The notes under the pieces are model-generated. The model was not told the origin of the DNA. It saw only the letters and a program-made list of their open reading frames with translations, and did no database searches. Position numbers and translations under genes: made by a program. A stretch of DNA of 23,209 nt from Escherichia coli (GTDB lineage Bacteria > Pseudomonadota > Gammaproteobacteria > Enterobacterales > Enterobacteriaceae), in NCBI RefSeq assembly GCF_003334355.1, contig NZ_QOWP01000045.1; one strand, written 5' to 3'. Shown one piece after another: positions 74 through 18,234 of this stretch. Every line of letters starts with the position of its first letter. Position 1 is the stretch's first letter.

Positions 74-1249
74 TCAATATCGGTTTCTGTCAGCGATTAA
101 ATTCAACACCACGTAACAAACGCCTCCGGCAATTAATCCCCAAAACGCAGAACCAATCCCGACCAGCGTCAATCCACTTGCCGTTACCAGAAATGCCACC
201 ACCGCCGCGTCGCGCTCACGCTCATTATGCAGCGCCTGATACAAACTGCCGCCAATGGTACTCAACAGCGCCAGACCTGCCAGCATCTGGATCCAACTTA
301 CGGGCAGGGCAGCCATCATCCCGGTAATGGCACTACCAAACAGACCTGCGAGCAAATAGAAAATGCCTGCAACGGCAGCGGCCAGCCAACGTTGATCTTT
401 ATCCGGATGCGCTTCCGGGCTTTGGCAAATAGCCGCGGTGATTGCCGCAATCCCGACGGAATAAACGCCGAAAGGGGAAAAAACCAGTGCCAGCAATCCA
501 GTAAATACAATTAATGGCGAAACAGGAGCCGAATATCCGGCTGCTTTCATTGCTGCGATACCCGGTGCGTTTTGCGATGCCATCGTCACCAGAAAAAGGG
601 GGAGTGCAACGCTCAGGCTGTGAGCAAACGAAAAATCAGGGGTAATATAAGTGGGGAGAACGGGTTTAAAGACAACATCAGTTGTGACAACGTCACCTTG
701 CGCGATAACGATCACGATCCCAATAATCATCGCGGCAATTACCGCATAGCGCGGCGTAACAGCCTTGGTTGCCAGCCATACCAGCAACATACTTCCACAC
801 AACGTAAATTGACCGTCCAGACTGGCAAACGCCTGTAAACCAAAGCGTAATAAAATCCCGGCAAGCATTGCCGCCGCAAGCGAGTGCGGAATAATGCGCA
901 TCAGACGAGCAAAGAGTCCCGTTATGCCGCAGAGGACTATTAACGCGTTGGTGACAATAAAAACGCCGATGGCTTCGTTAAGTGTTAGTCCCTGCAATCC
1001 GGTGACCAACAAAGCCGCGCCAGGCGTTGACCATGCGGTGAGAACAGGTACGCGATACCATAATGTCAGAGTCAGCGTACTGACGCCCATTGCCAGCCCC
1101 AGCGCCGTCATCCAGCCAGAGATTTGTGCAGTGGTGGCTCCGGCGACAATCGCTGCTTGCCAGATTATTGCCGCTGAACTGGCGTAGCCAATTAATACCG
1201 CCAGAAACCCCGCCAGTAGCGTGGGTGGAGGAATAGAAAACAGACGCAT
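74..1249 (-). CDS. ydcO: BenE-family (benzoate-type) inner-membrane transporter, 391 aa
   Basis: Minus-strand ORF (track 74..1510). The translation is a very hydrophobic multi-TM protein that I recognise as YdcO/BenE family. Start placed at the internal ATG at 1249 (MRLFSIPP...), which has GAGGTG just upstream; the longer track start would overlap the divergent ydcN start. Stop TGA at 74-76. Confidence 0.85.
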   Translation of the reverse strand: MRLFSIPPPTLLAGFLAVLIGYASSAAIIWQAAIVAGATTAQISGWMTALGLAMGVSTLTLTLWYRVPVLTAWSTPGAALLVTGLQGLTLNEAIGVFIVTNALIVLCGITGLFARLMRIIPHSLAAAMLAGILLRFGLQAFASLDGQFTLCGSMLLVWLATKAVTPRYAVIAAMIIGIVIVIAQGDVVTTDVVFKPVLPTYITPDFSFAHSLSVALPLFLVTMASQNAPGIAAMKAAGYSAPVSPLIVFTGLLALVFSPFGVYSVGIAAITAAICQSPEAHPDKDQRWLAAAVAGIFYLLAGLFGSAITGMMAALPVSWIQMLAGLALLSTIGGSLYQALHNERERDAAVVAFLVTASGLTLVGIGSAFWGLIAGGVCYVVLNLIADRNRY

Positions 1250-1258
1250 AGTCACCTC

Positions 1259-1306
1259 GTGCGTTATAGCGTACAGGCACCGTAGCATTTGTCCGTTATA
1301 ACGCAC
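1259..1306. promoter_or_regulatory. Perfect 10-bp inverted repeat (GTGCGTTATA ... TATAACGCAC) in the ydcO/ydcN divergent promoter region; candidate operator
   Basis: Read directly: GTGCGTTATA at 1259-1268 and its exact reverse complement TATAACGCAC at 1297-1306, 28 bp apart, between the ydcO start (1249) and ydcN start (1341). That it is an operator is inference. Confidence 0.4.
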
Positions 1307-1340
1307 AAGTGATAAACTTCCGTTTTGCCGGAGGAGTCGC

Positions 1341-1877
1341 ATGGAAAATCTCGCTCGCTTTTTATCCACCACACTTAAACAACTACGCCAGCAGCGCGGC
1401 TGGAGTCTTTCGCGACTGGCAGAAGCGACGGGCGTTTCTAAAGCAATGTTAGGGCAGATTGAGCGTAATGAGTCCAGTCCGACGGTCGCGACATTATGGA
1501 AAATTGCCACCGGGTTGAACGTACCATTTTCAACATTTATTTCTCCGCCGCAGTCCGCTACGCCTTCAGTTTATGATCCACAACAGCAGGCGATGGTGAT
1601 CACTTCGCTGTTTCCTTATGATCCACAACTCTGCTTTGAACACTTCTCGATTCAGATGGCATCTGGTGCAATAAGCGAATCGACGCCCCATGAGAAGGGG
1701 GTAATCGAACATGTCGTCGTCATTGATGGACAACTTGATCTGTGCGTTGATGGGGAATGGCAGACCCTTAATTGTGGGGAAGGCGTTCGATTTGCTGCAG
1801 ACGTCACGCATATCTATCGTAATGGTGGGGAGCAAACCGTACATTTTCATTCCCTCATCCATTACCCGCGCAGTTAA
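1341..1877 (+). CDS. ydcN: XRE-family HTH transcriptional regulator with C-terminal cupin-like domain, 178 aa
   Basis: ORF 1341..1877 with ATG preceded by GGAGG (1331-1335). The N-terminus (LSTTLKQLRQQRGWSLSRLAEATGVSKAMLGQIERNESSPTVATLWKIATGLNV) is a typical XRE/Cro helix-turn-helix. Divergent from ydcO. Confidence 0.85.
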   Translation: MENLARFLSTTLKQLRQQRGWSLSRLAEATGVSKAMLGQIERNESSPTVATLWKIATGLNVPFSTFISPPQSATPSVYDPQQQAMVITSLFPYDPQLCFEHFSIQMASGAISESTPHEKGVIEHVVVIDGQLDLCVDGEWQTLNCGEGVRFAADVTHIYRNGGEQTVHFHSLIHYPRS

Positions 1878-4002: not shown

Positions 4003-4233
4003 TCAACGTTGTCCCGCTTCTGGTTTGCGCGATTTTTGCCAGTAAAAATGCTCGCGCAAACCTTCCGCCGACTCTTCCGCCACAGCACGCAATTCATCGC
4101 TGTCCGCTTCATGGCGCAGCTGATGATCCACATTCTTTACCCACACAAATTCATGTCCTTTGTGCCCTGCCATGAGTTGTCCTGAGAACAGCGCACACGT
4201 TAATAAGACAACCGATAACGCCTTCGTAAACAT
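4003..4233 (-). CDS. yncJ: Small secreted/periplasmic protein with N-terminal signal peptide (DUF2554-like), 76 aa
   Basis: ORF 4003..4233 minus. ATG at 4233 is preceded by an AGGTGG RBS on the minus strand. N-terminus MFTKALSVVLLTCALFSGQLMA is a classic signal peptide. Matches YncJ from memory. Confidence 0.75.
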   Translation of the reverse strand: MFTKALSVVLLTCALFSGQLMAGHKGHEFVWVKNVDHQLRHEADSDELRAVAEESAEGLREHFYWQKSRKPEAGQR

Positions 4234-7968: not shown

Positions 7969-7985
7969 CTTCGCTGGGGTGCTTT

Positions 7986-8999
7986 ATGACGTACGCAGTG
8001 GAGTTTGACAACGTCTCGCGGTTGTACGGTGACGTGCGCGCAGTAGATAGCGTCAGTATTGCGATAAAAGATGGTGAGTTCTTCTCTATGCTGGGGCCGT
8101 CCGGCTCCGGCAAAACCACCTGCCTGCGCCTGATTGCTGGCTTCGAACAGCTTTCCGGCGGGGCTATCTCTATCTTTGGTAAACCCGCCAGCAATCAGCC
8201 ACCGTGGGAGCGGGACGTGAATACTGTCTTTCAGGACTACGCGCTATTTCCGCATATGTCGATTCTTGACAATGTCGCCTATGGGCTGATGGTCAAAGGC
8301 GTGAATAAAAAGCAGCGGCACGCAATGGCGCAAGAGGCGCTGGAGAAAGTGGCGTTGGGGTTTGTACAGCAACGTAAACCGTCACAACTTTCTGGTGGTC
8401 AGCGCCAGCGGGTTGCTATCGCCAGAGCATTGGTGAATGAACCGCGCGTATTGCTGTTGGATGAACCGCTCGGCGCACTGGATCTCAAATTGCGTGAGCA
8501 GATGCAGCTGGAACTGAAAAAACTGCAACAGTCTCTCGGTATCACTTTTATCTTCGTTACCCACGATCAGGGCGAAGCGTTATCGATGTCCGATCGTGTG
8601 GCGGTTTTCAATAATGGACGCATTGAGCAGGTCGATTCCCCGCGCGATCTCTATATGCGCCCGCGCACGCCGTTTGTTGCCGGGTTCGTTGGTACATCGA
8701 ATGTTTTTGATGGACTGATGGCAGAGAAACTTTGTGGCATGACGGGAAGCTTCGCCCTGCGACCGGAACATATCCGCCTCAACACCCCTGGTGAACTGCA
8801 GGCCAATGGCACGATCCAGGCGGTGCAATATCAGGGCGCGGCAACTCGTTTTGAACTGAAATTGAACGGCGGTGAAAAACTGCTTGTGAGTCAGGCCAAT
8901 ATGACAGGCGAAGAACTGCCTGCCACGCTCACGCCCGGACAACAGGTGATGGTTTCCTGGTCGCGTGATGTGATGGTGCCGCTGGTTGAGGAGAGGTGA
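7986..8999 (+). CDS. ydcT: ABC transporter ATP-binding protein (PotA-like), 337 aa
   Basis: Walker A GPSGSGKTT, ABC signature LSGGQRQR and Walker B LLLDEP are all readable in the translation. Confidence 0.9.
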   Translation: MTYAVEFDNVSRLYGDVRAVDSVSIAIKDGEFFSMLGPSGSGKTTCLRLIAGFEQLSGGAISIFGKPASNQPPWERDVNTVFQDYALFPHMSILDNVAYGLMVKGVNKKQRHAMAQEALEKVALGFVQQRKPSQLSGGQRQRVAIARALVNEPRVLLLDEPLGALDLKLREQMQLELKKLQQSLGITFIFVTHDQGEALSMSDRVAVFNNGRIEQVDSPRDLYMRPRTPFVAGFVGTSNVFDGLMAEKLCGMTGSFALRPEHIRLNTPGELQANGTIQAVQYQGAATRFELKLNGGEKLLVSQANMTGEELPATLTPGQQVMVSWSRDVMVPLVEER

Positions 9000-12210: not shown

Positions 12211-12245
12211 CGTACTGTCAGAGCACTGATTTCTCTGACAGTACG
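12211..12245. terminator. Perfect 13-bp stem hairpin between convergent patD and yncL; candidate bidirectional terminator
   Basis: CGTACTGTCAGAG (12211-12223) and CTCTGACAGTACG (12233-12245) are exact reverse complements with a 9-nt loop. No strong T-tract on either side, so terminator function is tentative. Confidence 0.45.
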
Positions 12246-12267
12246 TGCTGCGTGCAAAATCACTACA

Positions 12268-16131: not shown

Positions 16132-18234
16132 TTACTCAAATCTCCACGCAATATTCATGCCGACACCATAATTTCGTCCGGGCGAAGGTTCGTAATATCG
16201 CCCGTTTGACTCATTGACAATGACAGAACCAACGTATTCTTTATCGAATAAATTATCGACACGACCAAATAAATCCACAGTTAAATTGTGGTAATTGTAT
16301 TTATACCCGGTGAATAAGCCGACGAGAGTATAAGACGGCGCTTTTGCCGTATTTTCATCATCTGCCATAATATCGCCCATATAACGCGCTTCCGTGCCTG
16401 CATACCAACCATCTTCCGGTACATAACCTATCGACGCAAAGCCCATATTACGGGCGATCCCTGGCATCCGATTACCGTTACAATCCTGTTCATTGCAAAC
16501 ATTGCTGCGATAGGTCGCATCAAGCCAGGTCCAGGACGCGTTTACGCGAAAATCTCCTGCGAAACGTTGATCCCATGCCAGTTCAGCGCCTTGACGACGG
16601 GTCTTTCCGGCATTTTTGTAAGTCGTACGCCCACCGCTACTGCTATCGACAACAATTTCATCATCAGTGTCGGTCTGAAACAATGCGAGACTAAGCAGCC
16701 CATCACCAATACGCGTTTTACTGCCGATCTCAATTGTATCGTTGGTGGATGGTTTTAAACCTAAGTTCATACCGCTTTGCCCATCAGCACGATAAGACAG
16801 CTCATTAATCGTCGGCGTTTCAAAACCTCGCCCGGCTGCCAGATAGATATTCCAGGCATCGGTCATTGCATATTTTAACGAACCGGCAGGTAGCCATTTA
16901 TGATAACTGGCATCACCGCTGTCATCGCCGTTACCCGGAGTAACGTAATGGTCGTTGGAATCAAACCACACGGAGCTGTAGCGCACGCCAGCATCCAGCG
17001 ACAGTTTTTCGCTCAGCTGCCACTGCGTCTGTAAATAGGGATCGATGTTCCACATCAGATTGCGTTCGTCGCGACGCAACTCACCTTTTTGCCCGTACTC
17101 CGGCATGCCGCTATTCAGGCGGAAGTTATTGTAGCCCTTGCGGTTTTCACTCATGTTTTCGTAGTTCAGGCCGGTAGTGAACGTGACCGGAACGCCCAGT
17201 TCACCACGGTGTGTCCAGCGGCTGTCTATTCCCTGGTAATGGCGTTGCAGGGTAATCACGCCGCCCGCATGTGACGGGTTAAGTTGTGGTGCCATGGGTA
17301 TTGACTGGTACTGGGTCGTTTCTCGCTCTCCGGCATACATCATCACACTCATATCATCCCGCGAACTCAGGCTACGTTCATAGCGCAACCCAGCCTGAGT
17401 TTGCTTGATGGTTTTTCGCGTGTCGTACTGTTCTGCACGAGGCGCTTGTTGTGGATTCGCCTTCCATTCTGCTTTGGTTAGCCCACCTGGGTCATCTGCT
17501 TTGATATCCACACTATTGAAAATCAGGCTTAATTTGCTGGCTTCATCAATGCGTACGCCCAGTTTGGCATTGGCTAAATTTTTCTGTGCGCCACTATGGT
17601 CACGATAGCCGTGGGTCGTAAAACGCGTGGTTGAGACGGTGTAATCAACATCGCCGGGTTGTGTGCCGTCTCCCGTTGCGCCCGTTGCTTTCAGCCCATA
17701 GCGCCAGCTGCCAAAACTGCCGTAGTAACTACTGGCTTCAATGGTTGGTGGCTGTTGTCCGGTCTGGGTGGTGACATTCATTACACCGCCAGACGCGTTG
17801 CCATACAGGGCAGAAAAGGGGCCACGCAGCACTTCCACATTTTGCACACTGCTTAAATCGATGTTGGATGTTTGCCCTTGCCCGTCGGGCATGGTGGCGG
17901 GAATACCGTCCACATACAGGCGAATACCGCGAATTCCGTAAGTGGAGCGGGAGCCAAATCCGCGAATCGACAGCTGTAAATCTTGCGCATAGTTCTGCCG
18001 ATTTTGTACCTGCAAACCAGGCACGCTGGTCAGTGATTCGGACAAGTTAATGCGCGGTGTTGCCAGGCGCATCCCCTCGCCATCCACCACGCTTACTGCT
18101 GCTGGGGTATCCAGTTCTGAAACCACCTGCGGTGCGGCACTGACAATCATGGTTTGTTCATCAGCGGCAAAAACAACGGGGGAAAGGGCAAGTAGTGCGG
18201 GCAAAACGGTCTGTCGGACGGAAAAAATCTTCAT
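16132..18234 (-). CDS. yncD: TonB-dependent outer-membrane receptor, 700 aa
   Basis: Minus-strand ORF with signal peptide (MKIFSVRQTVLPALLALSPVVFAADE), plug-domain motifs and a C-terminal aromatic residue (…NIAWRFE) typical of outer-membrane beta-barrels. Confidence 0.9.
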   Translation of the reverse strand: MKIFSVRQTVLPALLALSPVVFAADEQTMIVSAAPQVVSELDTPAAVSVVDGEGMRLATPRINLSESLTSVPGLQVQNRQNYAQDLQLSIRGFGSRSTYGIRGIRLYVDGIPATMPDGQGQTSNIDLSSVQNVEVLRGPFSALYGNASGGVMNVTTQTGQQPPTIEASSYYGSFGSWRYGLKATGATGDGTQPGDVDYTVSTTRFTTHGYRDHSGAQKNLANAKLGVRIDEASKLSLIFNSVDIKADDPGGLTKAEWKANPQQAPRAEQYDTRKTIKQTQAGLRYERSLSSRDDMSVMMYAGERETTQYQSIPMAPQLNPSHAGGVITLQRHYQGIDSRWTHRGELGVPVTFTTGLNYENMSENRKGYNNFRLNSGMPEYGQKGELRRDERNLMWNIDPYLQTQWQLSEKLSLDAGVRYSSVWFDSNDHYVTPGNGDDSGDASYHKWLPAGSLKYAMTDAWNIYLAAGRGFETPTINELSYRADGQSGMNLGLKPSTNDTIEIGSKTRIGDGLLSLALFQTDTDDEIVVDSSSGGRTTYKNAGKTRRQGAELAWDQRFAGDFRVNASWTWLDATYRSNVCNEQDCNGNRMPGIARNMGFASIGYVPEDGWYAGTEARYMGDIMADDENTAKAPSYTLVGLFTGYKYNYHNLTVDLFGRVDNLFDKEYVGSVIVNESNGRYYEPSPGRNYGVGMNIAWRFE

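Follow-up and report, generated by a model that had tools for sequence, protein, structure and literature searches.

The window analyzed here, by which we mean the whole stretch of 23,209 nucleotides of Escherichia coli DNA (contig NZ_QOWP01000045.1 of assembly GCF_003334355.1), aligns to positions 1504832-1528040 of the MG1655 genome with 99.5% identity. It contains the gene for the BenE-family transporter YdcO and, divergent from it, the gene for the regulator SutR (YdcN); the spacer between them extends from the ydcO start codon (complement of 1247-1249) to the sutR ATG (1341), and the following features were recognized.

74-1249, minus strand: ydcO, BenE-family transporter gene (RefSeq name ydcO; TIGR00843)
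1250-1340, no strand: ydcO-sutR intergenic control region, 91 bp, identical to MG1655 1506081-1506171 (NC_000913.3)
1252-1258, minus strand: ydcO ribosome-binding site GAGGTGA, read from the sequence; abuts site A, and the plus-strand CTCC is conserved in the alignment
1259-1274, no strand: operator site A, GTGCGTTATAGCGTAC, 16-bp palindrome on the ydcO side; its left 10 nt are the left arm of the inverted repeat
1291-1306, no strand: operator site B, GTCCGTTATAACGCAC, 16-bp palindrome on the sutR side; its right 10 nt are the right arm of the inverted repeat
1330-1336, plus strand: sutR ribosome-binding site GGAGGAG, read from the sequence; the purine-rich block is conserved
1341-1877, plus strand: sutR (ydcN), gene for a regulator with an XRE-type helix-turn-helix (HTH) and a cupin domain (RefSeq name sutR)

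YdcO matches the BenE model TIGR00843 with 702.9 bits against a cut-off of 203.4, over profile positions 14-395 of 395, while SutR carries the Pfam domains HTH_3 (residues 12-64, 1.5e-16) and Cupin_2 (residues 105-171, 3.9e-10); the labels given to the two genes in the original prediction, a BenE-type transporter and an XRE/cupin regulator, were correct. With both domains in one protein of about 180 amino acids, SutR is an XRE-HTH plus cupin regulator of the VC1968/PuuR type, and its relatives in the PDB are 1y9q (8e-37, residues 8-177), 6b8w (cupin domain, 1e-37), and SinR (3.6e-08). In 81 distinct orthologues, the helix-turn-helix residues 30-58 show at least 98% invariance, and no variation occurs at the cupin residues H117, E123, H124, H157, Y159, and N161. 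Gao et al. 2021 (PMC8464067) used 1y9q as the template for a dimer model of YdcN. Among the papers found to mention ydcO, none was a functional study of E. coli YdcO.

At the outer edge of the locus, positions 1-77 of the window are the right end of IS609 (insQ/TnpB), whose annotated end overlaps the 3' end of ydcO by 4 bp (ydcO stop codon at 74-76). On the other side, rlhA begins 72 nt downstream of sutR. We considered a sutR-rlhA operon as part of the regulatory unit and rejected it, as rlhA follows sutR in 58 of 80 loci compared (see below), all of them in the Enterobacteriaceae, and persists in the three loci that lack both BenE and the operators. The sutR-rlhA gap (1878-1949) contains a promoter-like site, TTCGCA-16-TAAAAT, at 1891-1918 and a weak terminator-like hairpin at 1908-1924.

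Two palindromes in the ydcO-sutR spacer

The starting point of the analysis was a predicted perfect 10-bp inverted repeat, which lies exactly where it had been placed: the left arm, GTGCGTTATA, occupies 1259-1268 and the right arm, TATAACGCAC, its exact reverse complement, occupies 1297-1306, with 28 nt between them. Mononucleotide shuffling of the 91-bp spacer produced perfect inverted repeats of 10 bp or longer in only 15 of 5000 trials, and just four with a spacer of up to 40 nt exist across the whole 23-kb window. One of the others, a perfect 13-bp repeat at 12211-12246 (CGTACTGTCAGAG and its complement), lies between the convergently transcribed patD and yncL and probably serves as a terminator in both directions; the remaining two lie at 4022-4063 (3' part of yncJ) and 17364-17401 (inside pqqU).

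Each arm belongs to a 16-bp palindrome of its own. Site A is self-complementary at 12 of 16 positions and site B at 14 of 16, or at 20 of 24 when extended to 1287-1310; the two are 32 bp apart center to center in E. coli and share the consensus GTGCGYTATARCGYAC. Within the window, the degenerate pattern GTNCGYTATARCGNAC is found at sites A and B and at no other position, compared with 0.02 occurrences expected. Two further outputs of a repeat finder in the spacer, a direct repeat spaced by 32 bp and an imperfect inverted repeat of 20 nt, are there because each arm is part of its own palindrome. The 10-bp repeat is formed by the outer halves of sites A and B and is a by-product of two operators. 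A functionless chance repeat, for which the shortness of the arms is the sole argument, deserves practically no credence in view of the shuffling result, the excess of the pattern over expectation, the recurrence of the sites in 73 of 80 loci with protein identities as low as 53%, and the published protein binding at the spacer.

A further operator-like sequence of the window, GTGCTTTATGACGTAC at 7979-7994, overlaps the start codon of ydcT (7986) at the ydcS/ydcT junction and scores 16.2 bits as a SutR operator, a grade of match expected 0.025 times per shuffled window; the published list of YdcN ChIP-exo peaks contains none at this position.

Conservation beside the transporter gene

Of 5426 complete E. 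coli genomes, 5412 carry the spacer exactly once (at least 95% identity). In E. coli UPEC 26-1 (NZ_CP016497.1), only the part of the spacer from window position 1279 onward is matched; on the ydcO side the sequence has been lost or exchanged together with site A, and site B is the one operator left to sutR.

The SutR protein, used as the query of a genome scan, recovered 80 loci, from 90% down to 53% protein identity, in the genera Escherichia, Citrobacter, Kluyvera, Klebsiella, Enterobacter, Cedecea, Serratia, Erwinia, Pectobacterium, and Rahnella and also in several Halomonadaceae and in Paenalcaligenes. A BenE homolog lies divergently upstream from the sutR orthologue in 77 of them. When the loci were searched with a weight matrix built solely from the two E. 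coli sites, at a threshold of 14 bits, the 240-bp zones upstream from the 80 sutR orthologues contained 145 matches, and some 409 kb outside these zones contained 7. Five of these 7 adjoin BenE, in three loci (L034, L061, and L072) where BenE and sutR are separated by 470-770 bp. The pair of sites is found in 73 of the 80 loci, almost exclusively beside a divergent BenE-type gene, and some loci have a single site. Operator positions 1, 4, 5, 7, 9, 12, and 16 are invariant at both sites, and position 8 deviates in one locus; site B is the better conserved of the two, with both halves kept.

Two kinds of exception bear on the question of which gene the operators serve. In the loci L061 and L072, the sites adjoin BenE and are distant from sutR. 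In the three loci that lack BenE, sutR is intact, and the whole 5.5-kb locus is devoid of operators. The sequence comparison points to the operators as belonging to the transporter gene across very distant bacteria. The BenE-less loci (L017, L023, and L024) come from Kosakonia cowanii, Klebsiella indica, and K. spallanzanii; sutR has 74-77% identity there and is followed by rlhA. In the third of the separated loci, L034 of Klebsiella grimontii, an open reading frame for a 141-amino-acid GNAT-type acetyltransferase (positions 1978-2403 of that locus) stands between the operator pair and sutR, and the operators retain their place beside BenE; this locus was set aside as support for operators tracking BenE over sutR because the GNAT gene probably forms an operon with sutR, and L061 and L072 remain.

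The comparison also corrects the geometry first proposed, a single 10-bp dyad spanning most of the spacer: just 6 of the 80 comparison loci retain the exact dyad (two further matches are MG1655 itself; a second count gave 8 of 73), whereas the two independent palindromes are kept in 73. We therefore regard it as improbable that one symmetric complex assembles on the outer arms across the 28-bp gap. The arms are indeed perfect in E. coli, and the commonest spacing in the Enterobacteriaceae, 31-32 bp or about three helical turns, would place two dimers on one face of the helix, where they could interact; however, each arm has its complementary half right beside it in a local palindrome, and start-to-start spacings between 27 and 45 bp occur, with 48 loci at 31-32 bp. 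Two dimers at a distance of three helical turns could still cooperate.

Pairing of the arms in a leader mRNA hairpin or a DNA cruciform, acting as an attenuator, stability element, or structural signal, would account for the strong predicted fold of the spacer RNA (-35.8 kcal/mol, z = -5.3 for the plus strand; z = -4.5 for the minus strand). Such a fold arises automatically, because two copies of one palindrome complement each other, and the covariation expected of a structured RNA was absent: the Watson-Crick fraction between the sites was 0.807 versus 0.800 for shuffled partners, a value reached by 346 of 2000 shuffles, and the inner stem positions are mostly mismatched. Moreover, given the promoters predicted below, neither transcript would span both arms, and a hairpin would explain neither the local palindromy of each site nor the ChIP-exo peak. 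We rejected the structured element as a candidate and consider it very improbable.

SutR binding and the predicted promoters

That YdcN binds the divergent ydcO/ydcN control region, as the original prediction held, has in essence been published. The primary SutR study is reportedly a genomic SELEX analysis by Yamamoto, Nakano, and Ishihama from 2015. Later work from the same group lists ydcO/ydcN among the SutR genomic SELEX targets, at the resolution of the whole spacer (PMC5934670), and quotes a RegulonDB regulon made up of cysE, fliAZ-tcyJ, and sutR, in which ydcO is not listed. In vivo, ChIP-exo with myc-tagged YdcN gave 62 peaks and a motif reported to be palindromic (Gao et al. 2021, PMC8464067). 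Peak 21 (1504105-1504137), with ydcN as the nearest gene and flagged as also bound by RNA polymerase, has a signal-to-noise ratio of 1344.75 and is followed by dppA (140.56), yehB (31), and the remaining peaks at 21.2 or less (PMC8464067). Of the 11 SELEX targets, three coincide with a ChIP-exo peak at the same gene or its neighbor (ydcO/ydcN, ynfG with ynfF, and fliZ with fliA), the latter two with a signal-to-noise ratio of about 2.9.

The peak coordinates of Gao et al. 2021 refer to NC_000913.2, and the spacer lies at 1506081-1506171 in NC_000913.3. The conversion was calibrated on the caiF and mltD peaks, which precede any difference between the two versions and need no coordinate shift; their centers fall within 0.5 bp of the best operator-like 16-mers, CTGCGCAATAACAGTC and GTACGCCATAACGCTT. 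At 1.5 Mb we take the offset to be about 1976, an approximate value with indirect calibration that is uncertain by about 3 bp. With this offset, peak 21 covers approximately window positions 1250-1282, and its center at 1266 coincides with that of site A at 1266.5; moving it onto site B would need an offset error of about 32 bp, compared with the uncertainty of about 3 bp. It is the only peak called in the spacer, and it covers site A and excludes site B, so that we infer occupancy of site B from its motif and conservation.

The matrix derived from the E. coli sites also recognizes other YdcN peaks. The dppA peak, at an offset of +1977, is centered to within 0.5 bp on GAACGCTAAAACGCAC, a 15.0-bit match (0.075 matches of at least 15 bits are expected per shuffled 23-kb window), and the mltD peak has an 11.5-bit match at its center; weaker matches were found at caiF (8.0 bits) and at yehB (8.5 bits, about 4 bp off center). 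The lone 16-mers at the centers of the dppA and mltD peaks, like the single-site loci, again speak against one complex bridging two distant arms. GAACGCTAAAACGCAC, the single 16-mer of the second-strongest peak, lies at MG1655 3708116-3708131 (NC_000913.3), about 400 bp upstream from dppA, and dppA, which encodes a dipeptide-binding protein, may be a real secondary SutR target.

A genomic SELEX peak of the flagellar sigma-28 holoenzyme, of intensity 16.1, lies inside ydcN at MG1655 1504230 (NC_000913.2), about 34 bp into sutR (window position of about 1375; PMC5493296); SutR is linked to fliAZ in RegulonDB. The b1433 and b1434 rows of the RNA-seq tables of Gao et al. 2021 were considered as evidence from a ydcN knock-out and left unused: b1434 rises by about 0.9 log2, which indicates that the tables do not come from such a strain. 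The literature searched yielded no measurement of ydcO expression in sutR mutants.

In an alignment of 40 nonidentical spacers of the E. coli architecture, the columns conserved besides the two sites and the two ribosome-binding sites form two extended -10 elements, from which the following promoter elements were predicted.

1279-1287, minus strand: predicted extended -10 element of the ydcO promoter, TGcTACGGT; T1287, G1286, T1284, A1283, and T1279 are 95-100% conserved
1303-1308, minus strand: predicted -35 element of the ydcO promoter, TTGTGC, with an 18-nt spacer; overlaps the outer half of site B
1289-1294, plus strand: predicted -35 element of the sutR promoter, TTGTCC, with an 18-nt spacer; placed by its position relative to the -10 element, in the inner half of site B, and weakly conserved
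1310-1318, plus strand: predicted extended -10 element of the sutR promoter, TGaTAAACT; G1311, T1313, A1314, C1317, and T1318 are 85-93% conserved

In 70 of 73 loci, the region between the operators contains a minus-strand TGnTAnnnT, whose distance from site B stays at 2-3 nt even where the operators are closer together or farther apart; the plus-strand pattern on the sutR side, TGnTAnnCT, follows directly after site B, and in Serratia a perfect TATAAT occupies the corresponding position relative to that site. C1306, A1307, and A1308 are conserved in all aligned spacers, whereas the symmetric positions 1289-1290 are T in just 47-72% (19 of 40 and 29 of 40), an imbalance that fits a promoter role of the CAA bases. 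The predicted transcription starts are at about 1272 for ydcO, inside site A, and at about 1322-1327 for sutR. A generic sigma-70 scan returned no promoter inside the spacer. A search of Ettwiller 2016, ROSE 2023, and Romero 2014 gave no experimental start for either gene, and the overlap of promoters and operators is accordingly read from the conserved extended -10 elements.

Proposed regulation and related systems

Taken together, these observations suggest that the spacer contains two SutR operators, of which site B lies on both predicted promoters, and that SutR probably represses both sutR and ydcO. The half-sites GTGCG and CGCAC are about one helical turn apart, which fits binding of one SutR dimer per 16-bp palindrome. 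A dimer at site B would cover the -35 and spacer regions of the back-to-back promoters of ydcO and sutR and could thereby block both, while a dimer at site A would additionally cover the predicted start of ydcO and the first part of its transcribed region; the expected outcome would be autorepression of SutR and tighter repression of ydcO. A small molecule or metal bound in the conserved cupin pocket might release SutR from the DNA. The part of the original prediction that concerned control of ydcO by YdcN finds indirect support, in that the operators stay beside BenE across genera and bracket a conserved extended -10 element; ydcO is presumably the main regulated target. An aromatic acid as the ligand, which had been proposed along with it, was suggested solely by the BenE family name and found no support: the literature consulted assigns SutR to sulfur utilization, and no effector was found in it.

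Binding of SutR might instead activate ydcO, sutR, or both, for example by a ligand-bound remodeling of the 18-bp promoter spacers. SutR is annotated as a "dual" regulator in databases, both predicted promoters combine poor -35 hexamers with 18-nt spacers, and the RNA polymerase flag on the ChIP-exo peak would fit such a role. The positions of the sites, with site B on the -35 and spacer regions and site A on the predicted ydcO start, are nevertheless typical of steric repression, and the conserved extended -10 elements argue for promoters that are independent of an activator. Spacer remodeling is, to our knowledge, a property of MerR-type proteins and not of XRE-type HTH proteins. We consider activation unlikely and prefer repression from both operators.

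Beyond the locus itself, we lean slightly toward the view that SutR acts mainly locally, as a ligand-gated repressor of the transporter YdcO, in which an ancient module of transporter, two operators, and XRE-cupin regulator extends over the Enterobacterales, the Halomonadaceae, and at least one betaproteobacterium and the published sulfur regulon represents much weaker secondary sites. This view is based on the strength of the ydcN peak, about 10 times that of the next peak and at least 60 times that of nearly all others, and on the loss of the operators together with BenE where sutR stays. If it is true, the ligand of the cupin domain would probably be the substrate of the transporter, and a function could be assigned to two orphan proteins at once; the tie of the operators to the transporter gene suggests that the label "sulfur utilization regulator" may understate a simpler local role. 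The defined operator and the conserved cupin pocket could be used in the search for the SutR ligand and the YdcO substrate.

The core fact, binding of SutR in its own control region, was already known: the published E. coli target is the same locus and the same protein, with a dominant in vivo peak and a motif reported to be palindromic, and the control region is well conserved but ordinary. What the present analysis adds is the division into two palindromes, the map of promoters and operators, and the association of the operators with the transporter across distant bacteria; the two-operator arrangement, the overlap with divergent promoters, and the deep conservation beside a BenE gene are not stated in the accessible SutR sources. 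The locus is a tidy case of a regulator that would control its own gene and a divergent transporter gene via two operators, and it will not surprise a specialist.

Among proteins of known type, PuuR, the E. coli XRE-HTH plus cupin repressor of putrescine utilization genes, has the same two-domain architecture as SutR, and its operator sequence and regulated genes are different. The NCBIfam PuuR model (NF007408) is the best match to SutR, over the HTH region (1.2e-10), and the score of 41.3 bits against a cut-off of 211 indicates that SutR is not a PuuR equivalog. VC1968 of Vibrio cholerae (1y9q) and the 6b8w cupin are structural-genomics entries with clear homology to SutR, over the full length in the case of 1y9q; the records consulted name neither a function nor a ligand or DNA site for them. 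The 434 repressor and SinR share the HTH_3 fold and, as dimers, bind palindromic operators of 14-18 bp that resemble the SutR sites, in that the half-sites are separated by one turn of the helix and several operators stand side by side in a promoter region; unlike SutR, they have no cupin sensor domain, and they serve another biological role.

A parallel in design is offered by the tetR-tetA region of Tn10, in which the tandem palindromic operators tetO1 and tetO2 lie between the genes for a repressor and a divergent transporter. The ydcO-sutR region likewise has a regulator gene divergent from a transporter gene and two palindromes in the spacer, about three helical turns apart, an arrangement kept in 73 of the 80 loci; the operators would likewise lie on back-to-back promoters, with one dimer per operator. 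The two systems differ in that SutR is an XRE HTH plus cupin protein without the TetR fold, and for SutR repression and induction are proposed features.
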